64,000 bases of DNA from Nitrosopumilaceae archaeon. Its GTDB lineage: Archaea; Thermoproteota; Nitrososphaeria; Nitrososphaerales; Nitrosopumilaceae. The position numbers and the translations under genes were made by a program. Where the stretch lies: positions 704,001-768,000 of the forward strand of contig CBDBCR010000003.1 in assembly GCA_965203465.1 (NCBI GenBank), written 5' to 3'. Positions 3,238-59,277 of the stretch are shown piece after piece (position 1 is the stretch's first letter; each line of letters opens with the position of its first letter). Below the pieces are notes generated by a model. The model was not told the origin of the DNA. It did not search any database and saw only the letters and a list, made by a program, of their open reading frames with translations.

Positions 3238-4137
3238 GTGCCGCCGTCCCTCGCAACCGACGTAGGCGGCATCCGCCTGGAGCGGCCCGCCATGCTGGCC
3301 TCGGGGATACTGGGCATATCGACCGACGTCTTTGACCGCCTGTACCGGGCCGGGGCCGGGGCCGTCGTGACAAAGTCGCTCAGCTCCGAGCCGTGGGAGG
3401 GGTACGCGAACCCTACGGTGGTGGGCCTCGGCGGCGGGGGGTGGCTCAACGCGGTCGGGCTGTCCAACCCGGGGGCGCGCGAGTTCGCCCGCATGCTGGA
3501 ACCGGGCGCCGAGGCGCCCGTCATAGTCAGCCTGGTCGGCTCGACCGCCGAAGAGTTCGAGTCCATGATGGCCGAGTTTTCCGGGTGCCGCGTGGCCGGC
3601 TACGAGATAAACCTCTCGTGCCCCCACGTGGCGAGGGTCGGGCTCGAGGTGGGCGACGACCACGCCCTCGTCTCGGAGCTGTTCGGCAGGATAAAAAAGT
3701 CCGCGCGGGCCCCCGTGATAGCGAAAGTCGGCCTCGGATCGGACTATCTCGGGACCGTCGGGGCCGCGGTGGAGGGCGGCGCCGACGCGGTCACCGCGAT
3801 AAACACCGTCCGGGCCATGGCCATAGACGCGGAGGCCTGCAGGCCCGTCCTGTCCAACCGCGTCGGCGGCCTCTCCGGCCCCCCGATAAAGCCCATAGGG
3901 CTGCGGTGCGTCTACGAGATAGCCTCAAAGTACGACGTTCCGGTCATCGGCTGCGGCGGCATCTCGACCTGGGAGGACGCCGCCGAGTACGTGCTGGCCG
4001 GCGCGCGCGCGGTGCAGGTGGGAAGCGCGGTGGCCGGCCGCATGGGCGCGTTCGGCGAGATAAACCGCGGCCTGTCCGAATACATGGAGCGCAAGGGCCA
4101 TTCGCGCATATCGGAGATGGTGGGCCTTGCGCGCTGA
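3238..4137 (+). CDS. pyrD: Dihydroorotate dehydrogenase family 1B, catalytic subunit
   Basis: Motifs MLASGILG, GAVVTKS, NAVGLSNPG, EINLSCPH, GGLSGPPIKP and GARAVQVGSA. Confidence 0.95.
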   Translation: MPPSLATDVGGIRLERPAMLASGILGISTDVFDRLYRAGAGAVVTKSLSSEPWEGYANPTVVGLGGGGWLNAVGLSNPGAREFARMLEPGAEAPVIVSLVGSTAEEFESMMAEFSGCRVAGYEINLSCPHVARVGLEVGDDHALVSELFGRIKKSARAPVIAKVGLGSDYLGTVGAAVEGGADAVTAINTVRAMAIDAEACRPVLSNRVGGLSGPPIKPIGLRCVYEIASKYDVPVIGCGGISTWEDAAEYVLAGARAVQVGSAVAGRMGAFGEINRGLSEYMERKGHSRISEMVGLAR

Positions 4138-35668: not shown

Positions 35669-35692
35669 GCCTAATGAACAACCAATCGGGGC

Positions 35693-35830
35693 CGGCGCCC
35701 CGAAATGCGGCCCCTAGGCACGGCCTCCGGGGGTTCGGGCGCGGCCCGGGCGGGCTTTCGGGGCCAAGTGCGCCTCCGGGGCTCGCCCGAGCCGGCCCGG
35801 AGGCCAAGCAAAGCCGATCGCCTGGGCCGC
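35693..35830. repeat. Dispersed repeat (related copy at about 41072-41190) with core CTAGGCACGGCCTCC
   Basis: cggcgccccgaaatgcggcccctaggcacggcctccgggggtt versus cggcgccccggaatccggcccctaggcacggcctccgggggtt. Confidence 0.8.
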
Positions 35831-36110
35831 CTCGCACGCCCCGATCCGGGCACCGCTGGATCCGGCGGACCGGATCCCGGACGGCGGCGGAGACGGCAGA
35901 GGCCAAGTCCCGAACCCCCCGCGGGTTCGGCGGACCATGTGTCCCGGACGCGGCCGCGGCTCTGCCAAAGCTGCCCGGATCTTTCCGGCAAAGACCGCCG
36001 CCTGCGCGGCTTTGCGGCCCGCCGATCGGGCCCCGCGGCGCCCGGCGGGGCGCGGCATCGGCCCGAAGCGGGGGCGCGGCGGGTCCCCAAGCCGCCCGAT
36101 CGCCCCGCCG

Positions 36111-36878
36111 TCAGGCCTCCGGCCACCTGCGCCGGTAGTACGTCGCGTCGGCGCCGCCCAGCGTTATCCTCTCCCCCCAGACGAACGAGGCGCGGTACTT
36201 GCGGTCCAGCCTCTCTATGCGGCCCGACTCCATCTGCTTTTGGACCTCGCAGTACGGCATCACCAAAAAGTCGTTGCCGGTACCCGAGCGCATGACGAAC
36301 GCATAGTACGCGTCGGGGCGGTTGAACTTTTTGTGCGCGCCGGGCGAGACGAAAAACGAGCACCGGTTGCCCACCGGCACCGACGTCTTCACCTGCAGAA
36401 AGAAGCACCTGCCGCCCTTTACCGCAAAGACGTCCGTTCCCTCGTCGACGTTGGCCACGCAGGCGTCGAACCCGTGAAAGAGCAGCTCGCTTACCACCGA
36501 ATACTCGCCGGCCCTGCCGTTGAAGAGCGCCTGGTTGGTAGCGTCGGGCGTAGGACTGGCGCGGTCCGCAGGCAAGCTCTGGCCGTTCGGGGCCGCCGCC
36601 TGTCTCGGGTCGCCGTCGGAGGCCGGCCCCGCGCCGGCCGCATCCGTCTCCGAGTTCAGCCCGAACAGATCGTCGCGCCGGACGAACTCAGAGTCGGATC
36701 CGCGCTGCCTGATGTTGTTAGAAAGGACCGCGCTCATGGTCCGTGCCGGGGCGTCCGTCATTTTGTCCGCGTCCAAGAGCCCCTTTTGCACGGCCCTCTT
36801 GACGATCTCGTCTGCCGTGAGGAACTTGTCTTTGCCCGACAGTACCGCGATCGCCGAGATCTTGAAGGGCTGTACCAC
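36111..36878 (-). CDS. HARE-HTH (HB1/ASXL-type) plus PD-(D/E)XK endonuclease fusion
   Basis: N-terminal LTADEIVKRAVQKGLL...TDAPARTMSAVLSNNI; C-terminal GRAGEYSVVSELL..GF....VDEGTDV...LQVKTS. Confidence 0.8.
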   Translation of the reverse strand: MVQPFKISAIAVLSGKDKFLTADEIVKRAVQKGLLDADKMTDAPARTMSAVLSNNIRQRGSDSEFVRRDDLFGLNSETDAAGAGPASDGDPRQAAAPNGQSLPADRASPTPDATNQALFNGRAGEYSVVSELLFHGFDACVANVDEGTDVFAVKGGRCFFLQVKTSVPVGNRCSFFVSPGAHKKFNRPDAYYAFVMRSGTGNDFLVMPYCEVQKQMESGRIERLDRKYRASFVWGERITLGGADATYYRRRWPEA

Positions 36879-37038
36879 GGCATGGCTGCGAGTGCCCTGT
36901 ATTTAAGTCGCCTTTGGAGGCGATCGCGGGGCACTGTTGCGAATTCGGGGGATAAGCCTAGATTAGGCACGGCCTCCCCGATCGCCCAGGGCACCCGTTC
37001 TTGCCGGTATCTAGAGGCACAAATACGGACTGGTAGCA

Positions 37039-37247
37039 TGCCGAGCGTGGAATACGACGCAAGAGGCGTGTGCTCGATGCACGGCAACCCGTACGCGGCG
37101 GTCGAGTCGATCATGCGCTGGGATCACTTGAGCTTGGACGAAGCTGTCGAAGCGGTGAGGGCCGCAGGCGGCAAGGTCGGACAAAGATACGTGGACAATT
37201 TCAGGCGGCTACAGGCCAAAGCTAAACGCGCTTCCTCGTCTGAGTGA
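37039..37247 (+). CDS. Small hypothetical protein (transposon passenger)
   Basis: MPSVEYDARGVCSMHGNPYAAVESIMRWDHLSLDEAVEAV...; coding-like composition. Confidence 0.5.
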
Positions 37248-38138
37248 GGTACCGGCTCTCGTTCTGGATCATTGTCCGCCACTTGTCGGCCCCCTCGATG
37301 AAGATCTGGCTTCCTCGCCCGGAGTCCGCTTGAGGGACTGGTGCTTGCGGGCGTGGTTGTGGTTTACGCGGATGCCGCAGAACTCAGTCGTATGCTTGCC
37401 TTGGAGGTCCCTGAAGGTCTTTTCGCGGTCGCGTATCGTACCGTTGAGCCGCTCCATCCTGTTGTTGTTGTCCTTGCCCTTTTTGGGGCCGGTGATGTGT
37501 ATCTCGCGCACGTGCTCCGTCATGGGCATGACCTCCTCGGTGGCCACCCGGTACGAGTTGAGGCCGTCCGTTATCATCCTGGCCGGTATCTTGCCGGTCT
37601 GCTCCAGCGTATCCTTGAACAGTTTGGTCGCGTCGTGGCCCTCCTTGCGGTCGGCTAGGTCCGACGCGAGTCAGTACCGCGTGTCGTTGTCCGTCGAAGA
37701 GAACAGGTACATCAGGTCGCCGGCCACCTTCACGTAGAGCTCGTCCGCCCTGTAGTCGCTGCCGGTCTCGGGCCTTTGCCTGTCCATGTAGGCGGCGACA
37801 GGGCCGTACCGCTCGATCCACCGGAATATTGCCGACCTGTCGGTCTTGATTCCCTTTACCTCGAGGTTCTCGGCTATCTTGCCGGCCGAGAGGCCGGAAA
37901 AGTGCAGGCGCAGGCATTCGGTTATGACGGCCCTCGAGTACCGCCTGTACCTGAACCCGAACCTCGCGGAAAACTTGCGGCCGCAGTCACAGCACTTCAT
38001 CAGTTGGGTGACGCCGGGCTTGTTCTGGCGTATACCGTTCTTGCAGATGTGCCTTGAATTGCAATACTTGTACTTTGTCGGTGTGTCGTAGTTCTTTACC
38101 GTCTTTACGTATCGCTCCATGCCCCGTATACAGGCCAT
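37222..38138 (-). pseudogene. IS6/IS240-like DDE transposase with N-terminal zinc ribbon
   Basis: C..KNG.R....KCCDCGRKF, HTH, YRADELYVKV, in-frame TGA at 37671-73 (where W is expected), MITDGL, NNNRMERLNGTIRDR, and a frameshift before DKWRTMIQN. Confidence 0.85.
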
Positions 38139-38219
38139 GGTAATAGAAACATTAGGTAAACCTATTGGTCAACCAAGGAAATAGGTAAACTGAAATAAGC
38201 CCGGGTTGCGCCGCCCTGC

Positions 38220-38411
38220 ATGGTAAGGGAAGACTTGGCTGAGACCGTAATGGCCTTGGCCGTATCGAAAAGCCGATCGCTCCGGACGACAGTCCCCATA
38301 CACGTGGCCCGACAGTTGGGCCTCGAGCCGGGCTCCCGCGTAAAGTGGGACATGGACAAGGTGAAAGGGCGCTGGACGGCGACGATCTGCAAGGCGGGTG
38401 AGAGGGCGTGA
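38220..38411 (+). CDS. AbrB/SpoVT-like DNA-binding protein divergent from the transposase
   Basis: SLRTTVPIHVARQLGLEPGSRVKW, the AbrB signature. Confidence 0.8.
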   Translation: MVREDLAETVMALAVSKSRSLRTTVPIHVARQLGLEPGSRVKWDMDKVKGRWTATICKAGERA

Positions 38412-38506
38412 GTCTGTACTGGATAGGCGTGTTAGCCGTCATCGGGTTTGCGGGTGCGGCCGTACTCTCGCACACAGTACAATCGCTGTCCCGCCTCGGA
38501 CAGTAG
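38408..38506 (+). CDS. Putative 32-aa hydrophobic peptide coupled to the AbrB gene
   Basis: GTGA overlap; translates to MSLYWIGVLAVIGFAGAAVLSHTVQSLSRLGQ*. Confidence 0.4.
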   Translation: MSLYWIGVLAVIGFAGAAVLSHTVQSLSRLGQ

Positions 38507-38601
38507 GCCCGAAACCCCTCCGCCTTCAGGCAGATTTTTGAGGCTGATTTTTCGCCGATCGGCAGAAGGTTTTTCAAGCGTCGTTTCCGCGCATGGGTCA
38601 T

Positions 38602-39529
38602 ATGGGCAAACGCGGCGGAAAACTTACGGCGGCCAGTCTGTTTTCCGGAGCCGGCGGACTGGATCTGGGCTTCGAGCAGTCTGGAGTCCGCGTCGTCGTG
38701 GCCAACGATTCGTGGGACATGGCGCTGGAGACATACAAGACGAACAGGGACGGAAAGACCGAGGTGCTCGTGGGCGCGCTGGAAAAACACGCGAACGAGA
38801 TCGCCTGCTTGGCGCAGAACGCCGACATCGTGTTCGGCGGCCCCCCGTGCCAGGACTTCAGCCAGGCCGGATGGAGGACCGGGGACGGGCGCAGGGCCGA
38901 CCTCACTTCATCGTTCGTCAAACTGGCGCTGAAAATACGACCCGAGTGGGTCGTCATGGAGAACGTCAACACCATCATGTCGATCGGCAGGCGCCACGCA
39001 GAGTACGCGATCAAGGCGCTGGGCAGGGCCGGATACACGGTCACTACGAGGGTGCTCGACGCGGCCGACTTCGGGGCTCCCCAGTACCGCAAGCGCTTCT
39101 TCCTCATAGCCCGAAAGGGCTCGCACAACATGCTCGGGCTCGCCGAGTCCATAGAGAGAGAGAGAGAGAGCGCCGCTGACCGTCCGCCGGTACTATCCAG
39201 CCATAAGCCGCGGAGCCCGGGGCACTGAGTTCTACTACAGGCATCCGTGGAGTTTCGAGCGCCGCGCCATATTCAGCGTGGACGAGCCCAGCCCCACGAT
39301 ACGCGGCGTGAACCGGCCGATCCCCCCGAGCTACAAGATACACCGCAACGACGCGACGGACGACCTCGGCCTGGTCAGGCCGCTCACCACCGAAGAGCGC
39401 GGCATATTGCAGACGTTCCCGAAAAAATACGAATTCGTCGGGAACAAGACGGAGCGGGAGCAGCAGATAGGCAATTCGGTTCCGCCGGTCCTCGCCAAGG
39501 CGGTGGCCAGCGCGATCGTGAGGATGTGA
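38602..39529 (+). pseudogene. C5 cytosine methyltransferase (M.HindV-like), frameshifted at an (AG)9 tract
   Basis: SLFSGAGG, GGPPCQDFS, VMENV and PQYRKRF; after the tract, in the +1 frame, YYRHPWSFERRAIFSVDEPSPTIRGVNRPIP...LQTFP...IGNSVPP. Confidence 0.9.
39153..39170 (+). repeat. (AG)9 simple sequence repeat
   Basis: agagagagagagagagag located exactly at the frame break of the methyltransferase. Confidence 0.95.
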
Positions 39530-39530
39530 C

Positions 39531-40514
39531 ATGGCCGACGAAAGCCCTGAACTGTTCGGCATACACCGATCCAACGTAGAGTCCATGATGAGCAAGAACA
39601 TATTCACCACGTTCTTTCCCGTGGCGACCGCGCTGTACTTGTCGAGCAAGGGGCGGCCGGTCAAATACCTCCGCCTCCGCGACGGCGATTTGGACATCGA
39701 CGAGATTCTGTTCGAGCGGGCGATAGGCGTGGATTCCGGCGACCTGCGGCGCGTCGAATGGAACAGTGAGATACACCCGGACGCATTCGCCAGCAGCCCG
39801 AACGCGCCTCCGATGGACATGGTGCCCACCTTGGACGGGGAGCAAAAGCTGGAATTCGAGGTCAAACTAACCGTGGTGCCTACGTTCAACAAGAACAAGA
39901 CTACCGAGCTGATAGTGCGTCAAAACACCGAATTCTCGCTGGCCGAGAGGATGGCGTACAGGCACCACGACTTGGTTGACGTGCGGCCGATAACGAACGA
40001 CACGCTGCGCGGCGCGATTCGCGACGAGAGCCGACAGCTACCCTTCATACTCCACGGATTGTGGAAGACGGAAGGCACCAGCATGGTTCTGGACGAGATC
40101 AACGCCACCGACGCCTATTTCATAAGCGACTTTGCGTATCTGAAAATACTGCTGGACAAGTACGACCGGCACCCGCGCGAATCATCCCGCGTAGGCAAAG
40201 TGGTGCGGCTGATACGCAGCTGGATAGGGTGTTATCTAGAGAGCGGAAGCATGCGGTACAAGGAGGACAGGGCCAACGTGGAGCACCTGAAGGTCACGAT
40301 TTATCCCACCGAACACCAGAAAGACCTGCAAAGAAGCTACGAAAACCTGCGCCTGTCGGTGAAAGACCTGTGGAACATAGTCCCCGACGATTCCATACGG
40401 CGAATGTCCCCGGAAAGGAGGCTCGACGCGGCCATGTTCGTCAACTGGATGATACAGACGATACTTAAGCGGGAAGAGTCGGCGGAAGCAAGGGACGGCC
40501 GAAGTTTCACGTAA
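39531..40514 (+). CDS. Type II restriction endonuclease, HindVP-like
   Basis: PELFGIHRSN, KNIFTTFFPVA, EVKLTVVP, PFILHGLWKTEG and SPERRLDA; starts 1 nt after the MTase stop. Confidence 0.75.
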   Translation: MADESPELFGIHRSNVESMMSKNIFTTFFPVATALYLSSKGRPVKYLRLRDGDLDIDEILFERAIGVDSGDLRRVEWNSEIHPDAFASSPNAPPMDMVPTLDGEQKLEFEVKLTVVPTFNKNKTTELIVRQNTEFSLAERMAYRHHDLVDVRPITNDTLRGAIRDESRQLPFILHGLWKTEGTSMVLDEINATDAYFISDFAYLKILLDKYDRHPRESSRVGKVVRLIRSWIGCYLESGSMRYKEDRANVEHLKVTIYPTEHQKDLQRSYENLRLSVKDLWNIVPDDSIRRMSPERRLDAAMFVNWMIQTILKREESAEARDGRSFT

Positions 40515-40609
40515 AGCCGCCCGTCAACGAGGCCACGCGGCGAATATCACCAGTCCTATGGCGGCCACGACCGCCGCGGCGGCCAACTCTTTCGCGTGTT
40601 CGAGCGGGA

Positions 40610-40975
40610 TCATTCCGCCTTCTCAATGGCGGCGTAGTCTACCTCGTTTATCTTGACGATCCCGCTCGCGAGGTACGCCCCGTAATGGTACGGGTTCTTT
40701 ATGATCGACAGCGCGTCCAGCAGGCCGCCTATGCTCACGGGCTTTTTCATCACGCGGACTTTGCGCAGCGGTATGTGCTCGTCTTTGACTTGGCCGGCCG
40801 CGACCGCCGTCGCTATGAACGCGCGGCCTTCCTTGCCTCCGCGGTATACGGTGAACCTATCCCCGTCCCGGATATGCTTGACGTGCGGTGTCCGTGGGTT
40901 CACCGGCCACGAGGCCCCGCGCAGCCGCTTGTCTATCTCCGCGTCCGTGTCGTTCACGACCAGTATGTAGTCCAC
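40610..40975 (-). CDS. EVE/PUA-like domain protein
   Basis: W.VNPRTPHVKHIRDGDRFTVYRGG...FIATAVAAG...LSIIKN...YGAYL.SGIVKINEVDYAAI. Confidence 0.75.
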   Translation of the reverse strand: MDYILVVNDTDAEIDKRLRGASWPVNPRTPHVKHIRDGDRFTVYRGGKEGRAFIATAVAAGQVKDEHIPLRKVRVMKKPVSIGGLLDALSIIKNPYHYGAYLASGIVKINEVDYAAIEKAE

Positions 40976-41283
40976 TGGCGGCGGACGGCAACCGAGTCGG
41001 TTTAAGCTTTGGGCTCAGATCGCGTGCCTAGCCGGGGCTACCCCACGAATTGGAAACAGTGCCAATCGGTTCGGCGCCCCGGAATCCGGCCCCTAGGCAC
41101 GGCCTCCGGGGGTTTTGGACAGCCGGGGAGCCCGGCGCGGGGCCTAGCCCGCCCGAGCGCCCGAGCCGAGCCGATCGCCCACGGGCCCCCGGCTCACTCC
41201 ACCAGCTCTGCCCCGTACAGGCGGGCTAGGTCGCGCCTCCTGGTGCGGAACTTGGTCCGGCGGTTCCCGATCCCGCCGGCCTC

Positions 41284-42400
41284 GTGAAGGGCAAGTCGCT
41301 GGGGCCCGTCCCCTCCGTCGTCGCGTGCCGGTGGAAGCAGGGCAACAGAGGCGGCTCCATTCGGGGCATACTGAAAGATGTCTTCGGCCTGAGCATGTGC
41401 AGGGCCGCCGTGTTGCACGTCATAGGGTCGGTGGCAGACGAGCTCACAGAAGAGCACGACAAGATAGTGGAGCAGGCGAGCGAGCGGTGTGAGGGTGGAC
41501 GACGAGACCGCGATGGGGCACACGTACCGCAACGAGCCCGTATCGGACGCGCCTGACGAGTCCCCCGAAAAGCCGCGGCCGCGGTGACCCGCAGCTCCGA
41601 TCCAGCACGACAGCTGCGGGCTAGGCAAGGAATGTGACAAGCTGCAATCGCCGTAGCGCCCCGCAGATCCGATCCAGCACGACAGGGCGATGCCGTCCCG
41701 AACCGCCCCGCCCGATCCGGTCGGCGGATGTACCAAGCGCAGGCAGGTCTACGCGTGGGGGCTCGTGACCCTCACGTTGGTCGTGGTGCGCCTGGCCTTG
41801 TCGCGCAGCGGCGCGATATTCGTGGAGCACTTCGAGTACAGGATCAGGGCGGCTAACACGACCGACGGGTACGTAGTCTACGACGTGGTCCTGGTGCGTC
41901 AGCGGTACTTTGCGCACATTCTCCGGGACGCCGAGCAGATGTCGTGGTCGAAGGAAAAGTCGGACGTAGAACAGCACGGGCGCCTGCTGGGCATCTACTC
42001 CGAGGCAAAGTCGCTCTGGCGCCCGGGCGGCGCGCTGGCAGGCCCGCGCGCCCGCGAAAACTACGCGAGGCGGGTTTCTGCCGCCAAGGAGCTGGCGGGC
42101 GAGTACAAGAAGGCGGGCCGCGAAAAGTTCGGCGGCAAGATGGAGCGCGCAGTAGATCAGCTCTTCGTGTTCATCCTGTATCCGGGCCTGGATCCGACCA
42201 ACAACGCGTGCGAGCGCGTCATGAAGTCCGTGGCGAAGCAGCGCAACGTGCGCCAAAAGTGCGCGACTGCCGCGGCCGCGCCAGGTTAGGCATCCTGATG
42301 ACGTGTTTTGAGACGGGGAACAAGCGTGGCATCTCGGTCATGGACAAGCTGGACGAGATTCTGGGCGTACAGCCCGCCCCCGAATATGTGCAGATCCTAT
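41284..42400 (+). pseudogene. IS66-family transposase remnant
   Basis: DET, TTDGYVVY, RQR.FAHILRDAE and DPTNNACERVMK..AKQR; several frameshifts and an intervening insert with a GATCCAGCACGACAG direct repeat. Confidence 0.75.
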
Positions 42401-42747
42401 TGAAGATTCCACGTATCTGGCGCTGCATCAAACACTATCTCTGTTCCTTTGATGTCTGATTTCTCCATGGTGTGGGAATCAAGCCTACCGTCGCCCACTT
42501 TGCATACAGCAACCAAGCCGTCGTTTTTTGGTATAGTGAAGCGCGTTACTTTGATCTCGGAGATCTTGATGATCTGTTCGTTTTTGTCATGATCCACATA
42601 CTCTATCGTGGTGTTTGGTGTGTCTGGTACCACAAACCACTCATTGTCAATTCCCCCGTCGCTGATCTCATACACAAGACCCTTGCCTTGTCCTGTTGGT
42701 AATCTCAGGCGCTTGACCTCGATCCCCTTCGGTAGCACGATATGCAT
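42397..42747 (-). CDS. Hypothetical protein, low GC
   Basis: 116-aa ORF in an AT-richer patch; no motif recognised. Confidence 0.5.
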   Translation of the reverse strand: MHIVLPKGIEVKRLRLPTGQGKGLVYEISDGGIDNEWFVVPDTPNTTIEYVDHDKNEQIIKISEIKVTRFTIPKNDGLVAVCKVGDGRLDSHTMEKSDIKGTEIVFDAAPDTWNLQ

Positions 42748-43077
42748 GGCAGGGCTTCCAGAAGCCGGCGTATAACTGTATAGTAAGTTATAGGAGTGTA
42801 GACTCAGGTCGATTTGACTGCCGTGGCTAGGCCGCTTCGGCTAGGCACGCGCGGCGTCGCTACGCGCGGGCTCGGCTCCGTTGCGCGGCGAAACGGCGTC
42901 CCGAGCCGCCGTCCGGCGGCGGATCGTCCTAACTGCGGCCGGGTCGGAGAACAGCCCCTGTTTGCGGCGCGCCTCCGGCAAGCCAGAGCCCCGCTTTTCC
43001 GCGCGCGCGGCAGGCGGCGTCGATCCCGACCGGCTGGCTCGGCATGCGGCTGCCGCGCTCCGGTGCGGCGCCGCCCG

Positions 43078-44973
43078 TCAGAGCGTGGCCTGCGCGTGAC
43101 GCGGCTCCCTCTTCTGCATGGCCACCCGGGTGGTGTCCATGATGGACATTACCTTGGGGCGCACGCCTGCAAAGTACTCCCCGACGGTGTAGATTTGGAC
43201 CTTGGGGTACGTCCCGTACTCGGTATGGTACACCCCGGCCTTGGCCGCCGCCTCGTACATGCCCCGGGACGGCTTTTCGAGGCAGATGAAGATCCCGAAC
43301 GCCGCCTTGCCCTCCATCGTCCCGGCCAGCTCCCTGACCATGGACGGATGCAGGTTTTTGCCCCCTTTTACGGACACCACGACCGTCTCGTACTTTGGGT
43401 TGCCGTCCGGGTCCCGGACGAGGATCTGGCCGCTGCCGTCTACGCCCCCGTCGCCGGTCTGCTTTTGGTTGGGGTGCACGTTCGGTATCAGACTCACGGC
43501 CCACGTCTCGAACTGGAACTTGTTCTGCCGGGCCAGCATCCGCGCCGATTCCGGCGACTTTGGTATCCCGCGTATGTCAGGCCGTATCTTGAACTTGTCC
43601 GACAGCCTTTTCGCGACGAGGTTTACGGCCAGGTGCGTTATGTCGATCCCCACCCACGACCGGTTCAGCCTCTCGGCTTCCATTACCGTCGTACCGCACC
43701 CGCAGAACGGGTCGAGCACCGTGTCGTCCTCGTCCGAGGACGCGCGGATGATGCGCTCTAGCAGCGCCTCGGGCTTTTGCGTGGGGTACCCGACGCGCTC
43801 GTTTCCCTGGGCCGGCAGCACGTCGTCCCAAAAGTCCCCGACGTTCTCCCCCGCGTAGTCGTCCTCGTACACCTTGCGGATCAGTTTCCTGGAGCCGTCC
43901 GGCCTCTCGACGATCTCAAAGTTCCCCTTGCGGTACTCTTCCTCCAGCTTCTCCCGGGACAGCCGCCAGCCCGAGGGGTGCGGGTTGGAAAAGCCCTTCC
44001 ACGTATAGCACAGGTTGGGCCGCGCCCCCATCCCCGGCGTGCTCCAGATGTGCGAAGAGTCGTCCATCCACCGGCGCCCGTCGGGATCCTGCTTGCTGAA
44101 TTTTTTGCGCCTTTTTTCCTCGGTCAGCGGCGCCTTGGGGGGGTTGAACTTGGCGCGCCTCGCGTCCTTTGCGTAGAACAGGATGGTGTCGCGGTTCCGC
44201 CCGAACTTTTTTGCCGCGTGCTGGCTGCCTTTTTGGCCGGAGGTCGCCCGCTTCCACGTTATTTCGTTCCTGTAGTTTTTCGGGCCGAACACGGCGTCCA
44301 TCACGACTTTGAGGTAGTGGCTGGCCGTGGGGTCGCAGTGCACGTACACGCTGCCGCTCTTTTTGAGGACGCGGTGCAGTTCTAGCAACCGTATGGCCAT
44401 CGCGACCACGTACGCGAACAGGTCGTTCTTGCCCACCGCCTGCCTCAGGCCCAGGACCACCCCGCCTATGCGCGTCCCTGCCAGGTAGTCCAGCGTGGCC
44501 TCGGATTCGGCCGTCCACGACCACGTGTCTTGGAACGCGAGTATCTGGGCGCCGGACTTTTTGCCGTCCTTGTTTTTGAAGATCATGTTGTAGTCGGCGT
44601 TGGAGTTGAACGGCGGATCGAGATATATGAGGTCGACCGACTCGTCTCCGACGTGCTGCCTCAGTACGTCAAGGTTGTCGCCGTAGTACAGTAGTCTCGA
44701 CCTGGCGTCTCGACCTGGCGTCTCGACCTGGCGTCTCGACCTGGCGTCTCGACCTGGCGTCTCGACCTGGCGTCTCGACCTGGCGTCTCGACCTGGCGTC
44801 TCGACCTGGCGTCTCGACCGCTGTGATCGGTCAGCCCGTTCTTTGGCAAGTGCCAGAGGCCGTTTTCCGGACTCCGCGCCTACCCGCCGTCCGAGCCTGC
44901 CCTCCAACCCCGCGCCCCGGGGCGGCGCACTATTATGCGTATCTGGCCAGATGTTTGAAATGTCCCCACTCAC
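43078..44973 (-). CDS. N6/N4 DNA methyltransferase (beta class) fused to a C-terminal Mrr-like endonuclease domain; start uncertain, 5' region contains a 13-bp array
   Basis: LYYGDNL, IYLDPPFNS, GYPTQKPEALLERII and VLDPFCGCGTT, then QFETWAV...GDGGVDG...VSVKGG. Confidence 0.85.
   Translation of the reverse strand: MSGDISNIWPDTHNSAPPRGAGLEGRLGRRVGAESGKRPLALAKERADRSQRSRRQVETPGRDARSRRQVETPGRDARSRRQVETPGRDARSRLLYYGDNLDVLRQHVGDESVDLIYLDPPFNSNADYNMIFKNKDGKKSGAQILAFQDTWSWTAESEATLDYLAGTRIGGVVLGLRQAVGKNDLFAYVVAMAIRLLELHRVLKKSGSVYVHCDPTASHYLKVVMDAVFGPKNYRNEITWKRATSGQKGSQHAAKKFGRNRDTILFYAKDARRAKFNPPKAPLTEEKRRKKFSKQDPDGRRWMDDSSHIWSTPGMGARPNLCYTWKGFSNPHPSGWRLSREKLEEEYRKGNFEIVERPDGSRKLIRKVYEDDYAGENVGDFWDDVLPAQGNERVGYPTQKPEALLERIIRASSDEDDTVLDPFCGCGTTVMEAERLNRSWVGIDITHLAVNLVAKRLSDKFKIRPDIRGIPKSPESARMLARQNKFQFETWAVSLIPNVHPNQKQTGDGGVDGSGQILVRDPDGNPKYETVVVSVKGGKNLHPSMVRELAGTMEGKAAFGIFICLEKPSRGMYEAAAKAGVYHTEYGTYPKVQIYTVGEYFAGVRPKVMSIMDTTRVAMQKREPRHAQATL
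44694..44819. repeat. 13-bp tandem repeat GTCTCGACCTGGC (about 9.7 copies)
   Basis: Perfect array abutting the first conserved MTase codons. Confidence 0.95.
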
Positions 44974-45010
44974 GGGGACGGCTCGGATCCGGCCGCGCGT
45001 TCGCCTGTGC

Positions 45011-45397
45011 CTAAACCTCCGACGAGGCGAGCGTCTCAATCCCGTGGTCGCGCGCCACTTCCGACATGTCTCCATCGTCGGTGACTATGGCAAGCCCGTA
45101 CTCTTTTGCGACTACCACGTACGCAGAATCGTAGAATGTCAGCTTGGTCTTCATTCCCATGGTGGCCGCTTTCAACTCCATTGTAGACACGTTCATTACA
45201 TACATGTCTTTGATCAGATTCGTGTAGGTGTCTAGCAGTTTGAGCATGGCCTCTTCGCCCCTGCCAGAGTTTTTACACGCAGCGTTGCCTAGCTCGTATT
45301 GTGTTAGATCTAGCACCGCCTGGCCCATTAAATGCCCGCGTTGGGTTTCCCGTAGCAGTATGTTGAAAAACGCGCTAGCGTCGTAGAGCCTGTCCAT
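45011..45397 (-). CDS. vapC: VapC-like PIN-domain toxin
   Basis: LYDASAF, YELGNA, LTFYDSAYV and IVTDD. Confidence 0.85.
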   Translation of the reverse strand: MDRLYDASAFFNILLRETQRGHLMGQAVLDLTQYELGNAACKNSGRGEEAMLKLLDTYTNLIKDMYVMNVSTMELKAATMGMKTKLTFYDSAYVVVAKEYGLAIVTDDGDMSEVARDHGIETLASSEV

Positions 45398-49830: not shown

Positions 49831-49847
49831 GACACTGGTGCGAATTC
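49831..49847 (+). mobile_element. Orphan IS6-like left end
   Basis: GACACTGGTGCGAATTC matches the left end at 36930 at 15/17 positions; it is preceded by a cluster of TAGGCAC/GTGCCTAG motifs (49741-49810). Confidence 0.5.
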
Positions 49848-54535: not shown

Positions 54536-55671
54536 ATGGCCGCGCTGAGGCGGGTAGGCGGCGGCGGAAAGCCGGTAAAGAGGGGCGGGTTGGTGCGGCA
54601 CAGCCCCTACCACTATTCGGTCCCGTCCAGCTCTACTAGGCGGAAGCACGCCGTGGTCAGATCGGGCGACTCGTGGCACTGCACGTGCCTTTCGTACGGC
54701 TACCGCCACGGCACCTGCAAGCACATCGCGGCAGTAAAGGCCGCGTTCGACACGGCAGAGCCGGCCGGCGAGCCGTCCGAGCCGGTGGTGGTGCGCCACA
54801 TAGAGCAGGGCACGTGCCCCAAATGCGGCTCGGCCAACTCGAAAAAGGACGGCGTGCGCTACAACAAAAAGTACAAGAACCAGAAATACAAGTGCCGCGA
54901 CTGCGGCAACTGTTTTTCCGGAAACGCCGGGATGGGCAACACCGTGCTTCCGCCAGAACACGTGATCGATGTCATGCAGCTGTCCGCCTCGGGCCTGTCG
55001 TACGCCAAGATAGCGGCGTTCCTAGCCGTAAAAGGCGTGCGCGTGTGCGTAAAAACCGCATGCAATACGGCCCACCGCTTCTCCGAAATCCTGATCGAAT
55101 ACTGCGATCAGCTGCGCCCCCGCGTCTCCGAGGCGCGTGGAGAAGCGACGAAAAGCACGTCAAGTCGCAGGACGGCCCGTCGTGGGCCCACACCGTGATG
55201 GACAACGAGACCAGGTTCGCGCTTGCGGCTATGCTGGCGCCCAAAAAAGGCGAAGGCGACATCTCGGAGGTGTTCGTGGCCGCGGCCGTGCGGGCCGGCA
55301 AGGTCCCCCACATGCTGATCTCGGACGCGTCCAAGTCTATACACGCGGCGTGGAAAAAGTGCTACCGGGCGCGCACCAAGCTGCAGAAGAGCACCGCGCA
55401 CGCGTCGAGCGTCCACCTTGCCGGCAACATGAACAACAACATGATGGAGAGGTTCAACCGCGAGCTCGGCGAGCGCGTGCACGGCGCGCGGTTCGTCTCG
55501 GAACGGGCGGTCGTCGCCATGGTGGAGCGCGCCCGCCTGTTCTACAACTTTTTCCACAAGCACTCGGGCCTGGGCGACAGGACGCCGGCCGAGGCGGCCG
55601 GCATCGTCGTCGAGGGCGACAAGTGGACCACGCTGCTGCGCAACGCGCACGCCTGGAAGCTGGCCGGGTGA
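54536..55671 (+). pseudogene. IS6/IS240-like transposase with SWIM finger and zinc ribbon, frameshift near 55135
   Basis: CTC....CKH (SWIM), CPKCGS...KYKCRDCG, WRSDE, LISD, NNNMMERFN and FYNF..H.GL..RTPAEAAG. Confidence 0.85.
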
Positions 55672-56217: not shown

Positions 56218-59200
56218 CTACCGTTTCTTCCGTTTGGCGATGGTATCCGAGAGGCGCTCGACGACCTCGTCCTTTCTGGATCCAAGACCCAGCACGTCAA
56301 ACACCGCCCCGTCCAGCCTGTCTTGATCCAGCGTCTTGCAGTACGACTTCCACGCCTTGGCCATTTGGTTCCTGCCCGCCGCGTCCAAGACCGCCATGTC
56401 GGGCACCTGCATCATCGCATAGTCTTCGACCTGCATCTTCAACGCGCCCCCTCCCATGGGGTGACCCACGACTTCCATGTGAAGCGAAAACATCGACGAC
56501 CGGATGTATGCGAGAAGAGGGTGCAGGTGCGTGCTGTCGCGGGCCTCGAAACAGACCCAGGTATCCAGCGCGCCGAACCTGGTGGTGCCGACTCCGTCTC
56601 CGTTTTCGACCACCTTGTGCCTGTCGTTGCTGATGGCGCTCAAAAACGCATCCGGCGTCCCCCGCGTGTTCATGTAAAACCAGAACCGCTTTTTCCTGAG
56701 AGTCGGCGATTCTGCCGGTATCTTGCCAGACCCGTCGGGGAACTTTCTGGTCTCGCCTTCCCTGATGTACCTGATCAGTCCTTTTGCGTCCTTGTCGCGC
56801 AGGAGATCGGCCATTGGCGAAGTCACTGCCAGAATGTACTTGCCCGCGTCGCTGTTGCGCACTTTTCCGCTTATCGTCGACTTGGGCAGCAGGACGGGAT
56901 GGAGGAACTTTTCGTGTATGCCGTACTCTTCAATTGTGTCGGCGCCAATCACAAAGTAGCTGTTAAATTTGGTAGATACGCCGCTGAACAACTTGCCCGT
57001 CTTGCCGAGCGCGGACATTTTCACCGCGGGTTCGGGTACGGCATCCATGAAGTGTACTGCCCACTTTTCGTCCCCGAACTCGTTCTGGCCCTTTTTCTTG
57101 TATGCAAGGTTTGAAAACAGGCCTCCCTCGTTCACGGCCGCGTATCTGACGACGTTGTTTCTGCTCCTCCCCTTCGTCAGTATCGTGATCACCGTCTTTA
57201 CGTCTATGTTCTTGAACACGTTGTAGTCCGGCTTTAGCATGACGTTGATGTCGCAGTTGTCCGCGAGCATTCTCTTGAGGGACTTGCCGTACGAGAAGCT
57301 CATCCAGCTGTCGCTCACGATGAACCCCAGCCTCCCGCCTGCCTTTAGCCAGTTCAGCGAATGGTAGTAAAAGTACGACGACTTGTCGGCCTTCTTGTCT
57401 ACGAGTCCCGCGCCTTTCAGCGTGTTGTTTCTGGGCAGCTGCATGCAGTCCTTGTCGGAGAGCCGCTCCTGCCTCACGTACGGCGGGTTTCCGATTACGA
57501 CATCAAAGCCGGGCATGACTCCCACCACGTGGTCCTTGTTGGCGCAGACCTGGGGAAAGCCGCGCTCGCCGGCCCAGTCGAACGGACGCTCGCCCCCGGC
57601 GCTGCGCGTCAGGATGGTGTTCCCCCGCCGTATGTTCTTCGACAGATCCGGAAGCTTTCTTCTGCTTCCCGCGATTTTGAAGAACATCGCAATCCTCGAT
57701 ATTTCGACGGACTGCTCGTTTATGTCGATGCCGAATATGCATTCCTCGATTATTTTTCTGGCCACGCTCTGTTCAAACGCCATCCCGAACGTCTCGTTTT
57801 TTGACGCGGCCCCCTTCTTGCCGCCCAATTCGACCTCGTACGCGCCCGCGTCTTTCTTCTGCTCCAGTATCTCGTTGTGCACGTCGAGCAACACGTCGAC
57901 GGCCTTCACCAAAAACGCGCCGGAGCCGCAAGCCGGATCGAGTATCCTTATCGACCTCAGTCTTTCCTCGAGTGCGCCCAATTCTCCGTCGTACTGCTCT
58001 ATGAGATCGCGGGTGCTCGTGGTGTCGGGTTTTCTCGCCAGGTACGGGATTATGGTCTGCCTGCACACATAGTCCGTGACGTACGGAGGCGTGTAGTACA
58101 CACCCATCTTCTTCCTCTCGGACGCGTCCGCATCCATGAGCCTGTCAAGATCGTCGAGCGACTGTTCGAATATGTGGCCGAGTATGTTTACGGTCAAATC
58201 TGACTCGAAATCATACCGCAGCATCGAAAGCACGCCGGTTATGATCGGGCTGAGGTTCTTTTCAAGTACGTCGATCTGATCTTTGGCGTACTTGAGTTCC
58301 TTTTCCGCGGTGTTCGGAAAGTACTCCTTGGGCCGCATGTCCAGGAACTGTGCTTTGACAGGCCACGACTTTGTGAACAGGCCTCCGTTGAACGCGAAAA
58401 CGTCCGGGTTTTTGTGTCCCTCCGCGAACCACCTGAACACCTTGTCCATGGCGTTGAAGACCACGCTGGTCGAGCCGTCGATCTTTTTGTTCCCGATGCT
58501 TTTCTTGATCTGATCGTACAGCAGGCGTCTGCCTACATAATCGTTGGATTCTGCGAACATCACGAAGATCAGGCGGTTCAAGAATGACTGCGCCTGGTCT
58601 ACGGCGGTGCTTCGGTCCACGCAACCCTCGAACTCTTTTACGAGCATGAGGCGCGTTCGGTGGAATATGTCGTAGAATTCCTCCTCGAGATCCTTCTCGA
58701 TCTCGTCCGCCGTCGCCCGGGTCGCTTCCAGCGAATTTTCGCCGATCATGTGCGCCTTTGAGAATATCCAGACGAACTCCTTCAGCCGGTATTCGCTGTC
58801 CCGTATGGACGAGAATTCGAACTCGTAATGCTGGCACCGGCCGACATCGTACTTGAACAGGATGAATTTGTCATAGTCGGTCACGATCCCGTACTTTGGT
58901 ATGATCTCCGACATGTACCACCACAGCTGGCCGACGGCTCCGTTCTTGTTCTGTGGCGTAGGCTTCCACAGGTCCGTGCCTTGTCCCTTGGCTTCTATGC
59001 AGACGGCTGTTTTTCCGTCCGGACCGGCAATCTGGAACTCGATGTCGTTCTGCTGGAACTTTACGTCGTCCGTCAGCGAATAACCCAGCACGCCCTCGAG
59101 TATGATTTTCTGGAAATTCGTGTAGTTCAACTCCTCCTTTTTCAACTTGCCCCTCTCGAGCATGTCCAGCCACTTGTCTTTGGCCTTCTTGGCGGCCCTG

Positions 59201-59277
59201 TCCAACGCGACGTTTTCAGACAGTTTTCTGATCGCCCTGCGATTCAGCAGCGTGTTTTGCGACGCCACCGCGATCAC
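56218..59277 (-). CDS. Type IIG (Eco57I-like) fused restriction endonuclease-m6A methyltransferase
   Basis: IEAK, GIVTDY, FNGGLF, LGHIFEQS, RKKMGVYYTP, ILDPACGSGAF, FDVVIGNPPYVRQE and a C-terminal TRD; intact 1019-aa ORF. Confidence 0.92.
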   Translation of the reverse strand: MIAVASQNTLLNRRAIRKLSENVALDRAAKKAKDKWLDMLERGKLKKEELNYTNFQKIILEGVLGYSLTDDVKFQQNDIEFQIAGPDGKTAVCIEAKGQGTDLWKPTPQNKNGAVGQLWWYMSEIIPKYGIVTDYDKFILFKYDVGRCQHYEFEFSSIRDSEYRLKEFVWIFSKAHMIGENSLEATRATADEIEKDLEEEFYDIFHRTRLMLVKEFEGCVDRSTAVDQAQSFLNRLIFVMFAESNDYVGRRLLYDQIKKSIGNKKIDGSTSVVFNAMDKVFRWFAEGHKNPDVFAFNGGLFTKSWPVKAQFLDMRPKEYFPNTAEKELKYAKDQIDVLEKNLSPIITGVLSMLRYDFESDLTVNILGHIFEQSLDDLDRLMDADASERKKMGVYYTPPYVTDYVCRQTIIPYLARKPDTTSTRDLIEQYDGELGALEERLRSIRILDPACGSGAFLVKAVDVLLDVHNEILEQKKDAGAYEVELGGKKGAASKNETFGMAFEQSVARKIIEECIFGIDINEQSVEISRIAMFFKIAGSRRKLPDLSKNIRRGNTILTRSAGGERPFDWAGERGFPQVCANKDHVVGVMPGFDVVIGNPPYVRQERLSDKDCMQLPRNNTLKGAGLVDKKADKSSYFYYHSLNWLKAGGRLGFIVSDSWMSFSYGKSLKRMLADNCDINVMLKPDYNVFKNIDVKTVITILTKGRSRNNVVRYAAVNEGGLFSNLAYKKKGQNEFGDEKWAVHFMDAVPEPAVKMSALGKTGKLFSGVSTKFNSYFVIGADTIEEYGIHEKFLHPVLLPKSTISGKVRNSDAGKYILAVTSPMADLLRDKDAKGLIRYIREGETRKFPDGSGKIPAESPTLRKKRFWFYMNTRGTPDAFLSAISNDRHKVVENGDGVGTTRFGALDTWVCFEARDSTHLHPLLAYIRSSMFSLHMEVVGHPMGGGALKMQVEDYAMMQVPDMAVLDAAGRNQMAKAWKSYCKTLDQDRLDGAVFDVLGLGSRKDEVVERLSDTIAKRKKR

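Follow-up and report, generated by a model that had tools for sequence, protein, structure and literature searches.

Gene content and ends of the element

The stretch of DNA analysed here, referred to as the window, comprises 64,000 nucleotides of a Nitrosopumilaceae archaeon and corresponds to G000:C3:704001-768000, where G000 is the source genome (2.26 Mb, 4 contigs, 65% G+C); positions given without a contig are window positions. At 36930-41063 it contains an element of 4,134 bp, E1, in which inverted ends enclose a DDE transposase gene, a divergent AbrB gene with a coupled hydrophobic peptide, and genes for a C5 cytosine DNA methyltransferase, a HindVP-like restriction endonuclease and an EVE protein. 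A preliminary description had listed exactly these parts, and all of them were recovered. With a probability of around 0.8 we consider E1 to be a decayed, non-autonomous copy of a unit transposon, a 'transporter IS' (tIS; IS, insertion sequence) in the terms of ISfinder, and we hold it equally probable that the transposon family to which it belongs is widespread in Nitrososphaeria.

The left terminal inverted repeat (TIR) occupies 36930-36971 on the plus strand, with the tip GGCACTGTTGCGAATTCG and a subterminal TAGGCACGG motif, and the right one 41023-41063 on the minus strand, with the tip GGCACTGTTTCCAATTCG as read on that strand; both inverted ends begin GGCACTGT. The outer arms of 25 nt (36930-36954 and 41039-41063) are 84% complementary and, when one gap is allowed, 32 of 42 positions match, the alignment closing in a common TAGGCACG motif. 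An IS26-type terminus had been recognized in the preliminary description, and indeed 13 of the 14 bases of the IS26 TIR GGCACTGTTGCAAA (PMC8477213) are found in the left tip and 12 in the right. Both tips, GGCACTGTT, have the GG and the T6-G7-T8 of IS26, and G10 occurs in the left tip only. Allowing for up to three mismatches, an 18-nt tip pattern was found three times in the window, against 0.02 expected from shuffled sequences, and 15 tip-like sites were counted in G000. The tip-like match at 49831 (three mismatches), for which no inverted partner was found as far as 56300, is treated as a chance occurrence or a relic.

The IS6-type zinc-finger DDE transposase gene (37222-38138, minus strand) is a pseudogene. 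Its product matches PF13610 (DDE_Tnp_IS240) with an E-value of 3.4e-13 and 50.3 bits, compared to a cutoff of 27, and shares 88% of its amino acids and 86% of its nucleotides with an intact paralog of 317 aa encoded by a sibling element, E2. An in-frame TGA is present at 37671-37673, where the intact paralog has a W, and a frameshift near 37300 places the final ~40 codons in another frame. We take the motifs DELYVKV, ITDGLNSY and NNRMERLNGTIRDR in its sequence to be the DDE(K/R) signature, helped by the 'E--F---K-R' pattern that Harmer and Hall quote. Between the left end and the 3' end of this gene lies an open reading frame (ORF) of 69 aa (37038-37247, plus strand) that has no family match and whose status is uncertain; a copy, 81.5% identical, accompanies the left-end copy at G000:C1:326610.

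The divergent intergenic region upstream of the transposase gene (38139-38219) is AT-richer, contains no TIR-like sequence, and presumably holds the promoters and operator. It is followed on the plus strand by the conserved backbone gene for a small DNA-binding protein of the AbrB/SpoVT type (38220-38411, 63 aa). The protein matches PF04014 (MazE_antitoxin) with 26.7 bits (cutoff 24.7; 29.5 for the E2 homolog), and homologs occupy the same place in E2 and in the elements L049, L056, L064 and L084 of the survey described below. The start of an ORF for a hydrophobic, membrane-type peptide of 32 aa (38408-38506, plus strand) overlaps the AbrB stop by 4 nt, and the E2 counterpart, a hydrophobic ORF of 28 aa, shows the same 4-nt offset.

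The cargo starts with the gene of the C5 cytosine DNA methyltransferase (38593-39529, plus strand; TIGR00675), which is split over two frames (38593-39228 and 39278-39529), both pieces matching PF00145. The frame switch lies inside an (AG)9 tract at 39153-39170, the sole AG/CT repeat of at least six units in G000. A contig of 3,121 bp from run X1, which stems from a different study, spans 38358-41478 with one base difference and no gap, so the length of the tract is not peculiar to this assembly. Given that a dinucleotide repeat marks the point at which the methyltransferase loses its frame, the restriction-modification (R-M) system of E1 is probably off. C5 methyltransferases can be split naturally, as is M.AquI, but such a split was set aside for E1, as the break would cost the protein the segment that runs from the repeat to the first start codon in the second piece. 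The adjacent endonuclease gene (39531-40514, plus strand) is an intact ORF of 327 aa for a type II enzyme of the HindVP family (PF09519, E 8.3e-17; PADLOC REase_II, E 4.1e-16); side by side, the two genes would form a putative type II R-M system.

The last gene (40610-40975, minus strand) encodes a stand-alone protein of 121 aa that has no direct Pfam match, even at E<=1. Nevertheless, 55 of its 65 phmmer homologs match PF01878, and in the protein atlas it groups with EVE clusters. An AlphaFold model built with the 65 homologs (pLDDT 95.7) matches PH1033, MJECL36, 2gbs, 1zce and 2eve, and Foldseek aligned it to 1wmm, 2p5d, 2hd9 and 2gbs (E 2e-7, TM 0.70-0.77), entries that we take to be EVE proteins. 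On this evidence the product is an EVE-fold (PUA-like) protein, as had been proposed, and E1 thus encodes proteins of both the PF01878/PUA-like fold and the PF04014 type.

A sibling element in the same genome

E2 is found at G000:C3:312218-316652, where 4,435 bp are enclosed between two tip-like sites. Its ends are identical over 35 consecutive nt, it is flanked by an 8-bp duplication (GGGCAGGG) and its transposase of 317 aa is intact. E1 and E2 have only the ends, the transposase and the AbrB gene in common and their cargo is different, that of E2, another R-M system, consisting of an N6/N4 methyltransferase gene, out of frame at a G12 tract, and ORFs of 435 and 85 aa, both of unknown family. 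The two genes that flank E2 are described as housekeeping and include a 108-aa gene and a gene labelled NAC-like from our own reading of its sequence, without a family match. They are 44-199 bp apart in four out of four congeners, compared to 5,241 bp in G000. Because the left tip of E1 is identical over 18 nt to the right tip of E2, E1 could be mobilized in trans by the E2 enzyme.

Occurrence and structure of the family

With the E2 transposase as query, matches at E<=1e-20 were obtained in 163 of the 401 Nitrososphaeria genomes sampled (158 of 396 without five genomes flagged as unpublished, all of which matched), and 562 protein clusters matched at E<=1e-10. The names given to the matched clusters by their NCBI sources are solely 'DDE-type integrase/transposase/recombinase' or 'transposase-like protein'. 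A locus search with the transposase alone returned three loci in genome contigs and two in metagenome contigs. To delimit elements, 40 of the top transposase matches were taken with up to 20 kb of surrounding sequence and subjected to a seed-based search for inverted repeats with one arm on either side of the transposase. A pair was found at 27 of the 40 loci which, together with E1, E2 and two loci from the transposase locus search, gave 31 candidates. A perfect target duplication of 8 bp was present in 24 of these, 7 of 8 positions agreed in two, and five (L058, L062, L074, L080 and E1) had none. The candidates measure 1,855-7,034 bp, with the addition of L062, which spans 9,950 bp and lacks a duplication. 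Their ends read GG(C/T)(A/T)CTGT..., the arms are 22-49 nt long, and in most elements 43-100 bp separate the transposase stop from one end, a distance that grows to a few hundred bp in some.

The insertion of one member could be followed precisely. L054 (3,332 bp) carries genes for an N6/N4 methyltransferase, an HNH nuclease, the small regulator and the transposase, is flanked on each side by AGTTCTGT and interrupts a conserved reading frame. Of 90 other genomes belonging to its genus, 10 contain the left flank, and in all 10 the right flank is adjacent; the eight junctions displayed consist, without exception, of a single uninterrupted copy of the target, e.g. AGTTCTAT. The 8-bp duplications around units of up to 7 kb and this exact empty site demonstrate unit insertion of members that carry cargo, each with a single transposase. 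The proposal in the preliminary description of a single-transposase 'transporter' IS6 lineage that moves defence genes is thereby supported, by E2, by the duplications in 24 of 31 candidates and by the empty site of L054. Two of the checks that it had suggested, a tabulation of homologs, TIRs and cargo in Nitrososphaeria and a search for empty alleles, both agree: members of this transposase family are as a rule bounded by ends, have a single transposase, show 8-bp duplications and carry mostly R-M genes, and besides the site of L054 the E2 flanks are adjacent in all four congeners. No case was seen of R-M genes at the E1 locus without the ends, which it had named as counter-evidence, although the locus has no alignable counterpart in these congeners.

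These data also bear on another explanation, namely that a plain IS, made up of the transposase gene with or without the AbrB gene, happens to lie beside an unrelated chromosomal R-M island, the right repeat being a stray end that another copy left behind, a remnant of a pseudo-compound transposon without its second IS. It accords with the classical way in which IS6 members carry cargo, between two IS copies, with the missing target duplication of E1 and its location within an IS/defence island, and with the existence in G000 of solo or degenerate ends (C1:326610, C1:334205 and the 54-bp repeats discussed below). A plain IS should be bounded by a second, internal terminus, as had been pointed out beforehand. 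When up to five mismatches with the 20-nt tips were allowed, no such terminus was found in 27 of 30 elements, i.e. in E1, in E2 and in 25 of the 28 others (the exceptions being L048, L046 and L062), and none lies between the transposase and AbrB genes and the cargo of E1. The plan of one transposase, outer ends and 8-bp duplications is shared by 24 relatives, even the smallest members (1,855 and 1,970 bp) have outer ends only, and the empty site of L054 spans transposase and cargo alike. The plain-IS explanation was already disfavoured on these grounds and we judge it improbable.

Cargo and small regulatory genes

Cargo was compared in 29 distinct elements, which excludes L062, considered doubtful in view of its 9,950 bp, lack of a duplication and internal end-like sequences, and L014, a duplicate of L013. 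Pfam domains of DNA methyltransferases or of the restriction type were detected in 20 of the 29. Among the non-transposase ORFs of at least 150 aa (42 ORFs in 26 elements), 27 contained an R-M domain at E<=1e-5, compared to two out of 148 flanking ORFs at the same loci (a random sample of 212); both of the latter lie beside L063 and the others are housekeeping genes. The systems carried include N6/N4 methyltransferase-HNH fusions, MvaI/BcnI, an EcoRI-type methylase with GmrSD_N-HNH, GmrSD, IIG enzymes of the MmeI and Eco57I type, type III Mod+Res and type I HsdM+HsdS. Backbones and cargo recombine: L054 and L059, which occupy the same genome, agree at 96% of positions in the transposase and one of the ends and have unrelated cargo, and the EcoRI-methylase/GmrSD_N-HNH module is combined with ~70%-identical transposases in three genomes.

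A gene of 50-85 aa on the opposite strand, beside the start of the transposase gene, is nearly always present. Three classes can be discerned. The first is the AbrB class ('...SLRTTVP...'; E1, E2, L049, L056, L064, L084), the only one with a Pfam match; the second, which we read as AbrB-like from its sequence, is characterized by 'TRWKKDETEF...RIPKPILE' (L054, L058, L072, L075, L079, L012); and the third combines 'KGKxYLYY...YCGL' with a coiled coil (L051, L061, L063, L066, L071, L080). Considering that the small divergent gene is kept in the smallest, R-M-free elements (L072 and L064), we infer that it is a regulator of the backbone and not an R-M controller.

Relation to IS6 and other mobile systems

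The best NCBIfam model for the transposases is NF033587 (123.3 and 122.5 bits for two members, just below the cutoff of 125, and 130.5 bits for a third), and NF050000 matches their N-terminal zinc-binding region. In a tblastn search of plasmids, all of the listed matches that carry annotation fall on IS6/IS240 transposase genes. Members of the IS6 family are described as having 700-890 bp, one ORF, ends of 15-20 bp and 8-bp repeats (PMC7986276) and a cTGTt end motif (PMC7986276, PMC8477213), and transposition exclusively through cointegrates serves as a family criterion. E1 agrees with IS6 in the broad sense in its transposase profile and in its GG tips with the cTGTt motif; it differs in the absence of 8-bp target repeats, which 24 of the 31 candidates, E2 included, do have, and in its plan, as it measures 4,134 bp and contains six or more genes instead of a single ORF within ~700-890 bp. 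For the family as a whole, the likeness to IS6/IS26 (IS26, IS257, IS240) lies in the DDE transposase of IS6 profile, the GG tips, the TGT at positions 6-8, the 8-bp duplication in relatives of E1 and the zinc-binding N-terminus, a trait of the longer clade of Varani et al.; the difference lies in the size of 1.9-7 kb, the ends of 22-49 nt and the presence of a regulator gene and cargo. Harmer and Hall (2019) define an IS26 family in the strict sense by closely related transposases with the conserved catalytic signature of the short bacterial group, and E1 does not belong to it, its identity to annotated bacterial IS6 transposases being 25-31%; these authors regard 25-26% identity or less between groups as grounds for separation (see also PMC6807381). 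Nor do the elements fit the IS6 family as it is usually drawn, given their size, gene content, end length and identity.

Three known systems come closest in organization. ISDsp3 resembles the elements in that a single pair of ends encloses one transposase together with passenger DNA (Varani et al. 2021, PMC7986276). It is given there as the sole IS6 tIS on record, with one hypothetical passenger gene in a single copy in one bacterium, whereas the present elements make up a whole lineage in archaea, with R-M cargo of several genes and a conserved regulator. In the pseudo-compound transposons and translocatable units (TU) of IS26 an IS6-type transposase likewise mobilizes neighbouring genes. These, however, require two direct IS copies, or else a TU whose one IS is aimed at a further IS, as opposed to one transposase, inverted ends and a unit-wide 8-bp duplication; E1, with one transposase gene and no internal terminus, is not a pseudo-compound structure. 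Its relatives behave as unit transposons and E1 has the architecture of one, without the duplication. Finally, Furuta, Abe and Kobayashi (2010, PMC2853133) described R-M genes that lie between imperfect inverted repeats, are flanked by an 8-bp target duplication and have an empty site in a relative. The cases they report are isolated, bacterial and mostly without a recognizable transposase, and the authors could not name the mover, while the present pattern is tied to an identified transposase family, throughout which it recurs in archaea.

State and history of the window element

A number of observations weigh against the interpretation given above. As regards E1 itself, the transposase gene carries a nonsense codon and a frameshift, an 8-bp target duplication is absent (left gatcgcgg, right aatcggtt), two 54-bp repeats that bracket E1 and a neighbouring HARE-HTH gene hint at an event of another kind, and nothing shows that E1 ever moved as drawn. 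As regards the affiliation, the NCBIfam score of the E1 transposase (123.3) is below the cutoff of 125 and the identity to annotated bona fide IS6 transposases on plasmids does not exceed 25-31% (tblastn). Moreover, Harmer and Hall state that archaeal 'IS6' elements should leave the family and that no experimental data exist for any archaeal member, so that the cointegrate mechanism considered below is borrowed. The survey was made with loci picked by best transposase score, which biases it toward intact copies, and with ORFs called by a crude longest-ORF rule; the seed-based search revealed no end pair at 13 of the 40 loci, two of which are short contigs, and 9 of the 29 elements lack a recognizable R-M gene. 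In G304, furthermore, the one genome searched for second copies, two cargo-bearing elements are each present in a single copy and only the transposase and ends are repeated, and hence no cargo unit was seen to have transposed more than once within a genome.

The absence of a duplication around E1 points to a later rearrangement, and the 54-bp direct repeat may be related to it. The repeat, at 35682-35735 and 41062-41114 on the plus strand, lies outside E1, except that the second copy abuts the right end and starts 2 bp inside the tip; it has only two copies in G000, 91% identical over 54 bp, and resembles a degenerate left end. Its position would fit a history in which E1 owes its place to an event other than transposition, either the insertion or duplication of a block of ~5.3 kb (HARE-HTH gene plus E1) with a duplication of 52-54 bp or a recombination between two copies. 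Such an event would account for the missing 8-bp duplication and would leave the family a transposon family. Bacterial R-M units are known to insert with long target duplications (PMC2853133), and HARE-HTH paralogs also adjoin another family member, at C3:776-779k. On the other hand, the repeat resembles a degenerate subterminal left end (TAGGCACGGCCTCC) and the two copies may simply be relic ends. In addition, no empty allele was found for the locus, as a DNA search recovered no alignable flank of E1 in the four congeners. All in all, we regard such an origin as unlikely. No tRNA was found near E1 or near the 54-bp repeats.

Contigs from other runs provide a further view of E1. In run X1 one contig stops exactly at the left tip (36929/36930) and continues with a different flank, and the depth in this run is up to 515 over the transposase gene compared to 15.9 over the cargo. 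A joint from 41063 to 42988 in X1 was not relied on, as one of its sides comprises only 21 letters. E1 occurs in identical form in contigs of X1, X6 and X9, runs that belong to several studies. This fixed state, the inactive transposase gene and the simple-sequence repeat in the methyltransferase gene, which is typical of switchable genes, could be taken to mean that E1 is a domesticated, immobile defence cassette in which the transposase-AbrB pair has been recruited for regulation and the repeats act as regulatory or recombination sites. That is hardly credible considering that the transposase of E1 is decaying rather than conserved, that the sibling and the relatives display fresh insertions with duplications and empty sites, and that near-identical backbones are found with different cargo. 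We return, then, to E1 as a decayed transposon copy: the family is large and apparently undescribed, E1 itself is now broken, and as such it is a fossil pointing to a widespread family, a case in which the initial observation is confirmed and its interpretation supported.

Proposed mechanism and implications

The backbone of the elements consists of family-specific inverted ends, one IS6-type zinc-finger DDE transposase gene near one end and the divergent gene of a small DNA-binding protein, of the AbrB type in the subclade of E1, with a variable cargo bay, usually filled by an R-M system, between this regulator gene and the far end. By analogy with IS26, insertion may proceed by replicative (copy-in) cointegrate formation in the style of IS6, after which host homologous recombination between the two element copies, for which 2-7 kb would offer ample homology, may follow; the transposition chemistry of the family is thus proposed from that of a bacterial relative. 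The AbrB-type protein presumably controls the divergent promoters. The R-M cargo may provide host defence and/or post-segregational killing and in that way aid the persistence of the element. As several of the carried methyltransferases are interrupted at, or contain, long simple-sequence tracts, the elements may also deliver phase-variable methylation.

According to the textbook view, IS6 elements are tiny, have one gene and move cargo only via two-copy pseudo-compound structures. The 2021 review of IS6 mentions a single member with one passenger gene (PMC7986276), and the main survey of thaumarchaeal mobile elements describes IS with 1-2 genes and passenger-gene transposons as 'not detected in archaea' (PMC6563490). 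Both statements are changed by a lineage in which R-M genes amounting to 1-5 kb travel as one unit with a single IS6-type transposase and leave exact empty sites for comparison. In the part of a survey of archaeal IS available to us the word 'passenger' is absent (PMC13343696), the available part of PMC11410982 holds nothing relevant to the family, and a search of full-text literature, to which supplements, ISfinder and TnCentral do not belong, revealed no description of it. On balance we favour the view that Nitrososphaeria, and perhaps archaea more broadly, harbour a large undescribed family of IS6-related unit transposons with mostly R-M cargo (types I, II, IIG, III and IV) and a conserved small regulator, which would be the first passenger-carrying transposons recognized in the phylum and a main vehicle for the spread of R-M systems in it. 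The elements offer a concrete vehicle for the flow of defence genes in globally abundant ammonia oxidizers, and, with their ends, transposase and regulator, a tractable system in which to study archaeal IS6-type enzymes. In sponge-associated Thaumarchaeota transposases and R-M genes are both enriched for reasons described as unclear (PMC7848895); the proposed family, if real, would explain their joint rise in these ammonia oxidizers.

Surroundings, derivatives and simple repeats

The HARE-HTH-domain gene (36111-36878, minus strand, 255 aa) lies 52 bp to the left of E1. Two paralogs, at G000:C3:776045-776804 and 778143-778853 (60% and 54% amino acid identity), are situated just past the cargo end of another family member, E3. 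To the right of E1 extends an IS/defence island (41690-42289, 43078-45075, 54673-55671 and 56218-59277) with a fragment of an IS66 transposase, an N6/N4 methyltransferase of 665 aa that includes a fused restriction-like domain, a distant (~30%) remnant of an IS6-type transposase and a 1,019-aa type IIG enzyme that resembles Eco57I/MmeI. Very G+C-rich stretches without a convincing ORF are found beside E1 (35680-36110, 430 bp) and beside E2 (L009 1264-2018, 755 bp), the latter being absent also from the intergenic region of the congeners.

Further members and derivatives are present in G000. The third member, L084 (C3:771561-775932, 4,372 bp, duplication CGACGTGT), starts 3.6 kb past the right edge of the window and has a 373-aa transposase (41% identity to that of E2), an AbrB gene and an ORF of 909 aa that weakly matches the Eco57I type. 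Two derivatives lack a transposase: at C1:326610-326996 a left end is followed by the 69-aa ORF (81% identity), and at C1:334205-334850 (L010) by an AbrB homolog ~500 bp later. A stretch of 633 bp between inverted tip-like sequences (GGCGCCGTTTC(A/C)AATTCG; C1:193636-194268), without an 8-bp duplication, is a possible miniature derivative. Another tip-like sequence (two mismatches), at C3:961933, adjoins two C5 methyltransferase homologs (C3:962230-966917; 34-36% identity to that of the window).

Some of the surveyed loci have peculiar structures. L048 (G305:C133) consists of two elements back to back, an end-bounded unit of 1.2 kb without a transposase and an autonomous element of 2.9 kb with MvaI/BcnI and a methylase. 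The 'ends' of L069 (G283:C1; 6,893 bp, type III R-M) form a perfect inverted repeat of 462 bp, each arm of which holds the tip and the 5' part of mod, so that there is a mod gene at each end. The 8-bp sequence that L054 targeted, AGTTCTGT, is similar to the tip of the element itself, GGTTCTGT, maybe by chance or as a result of target preference. In G304 a repeat of ~85 bp occurs in more than 30 copies (94-99% identity), with one inside L054 and one in its left flank, and a stretch of ~89 bp of the right flank that is missing from the empty sites may be another copy.

Simple repeats coincide exactly with the methyltransferase frame breaks in E1, with (AG)9, and in E2, with G12 (L009 ~4074-4085, G000:C3:314273). 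Runs of 9-11 G/C nucleotides are found in or near the methylase genes of L054, L057, L063, L069 and L047, some of them in genomes of 33% G+C. These repeats could reflect phase variation, mutational hot spots or homopolymer assembly error. Seven G/C homopolymers or AG repeats were counted in 119 kb of elements compared to seven in 395 kb of flanks, a difference in density that is suggestive only. G000 as a whole contains 52 poly-G/poly-C tracts (9-18 nt), whose strand depends strongly on the contig: those of C1 and C2 are almost all poly-G and those of C3 almost all poly-C, the sole poly-G tract of C3 being located within E2.

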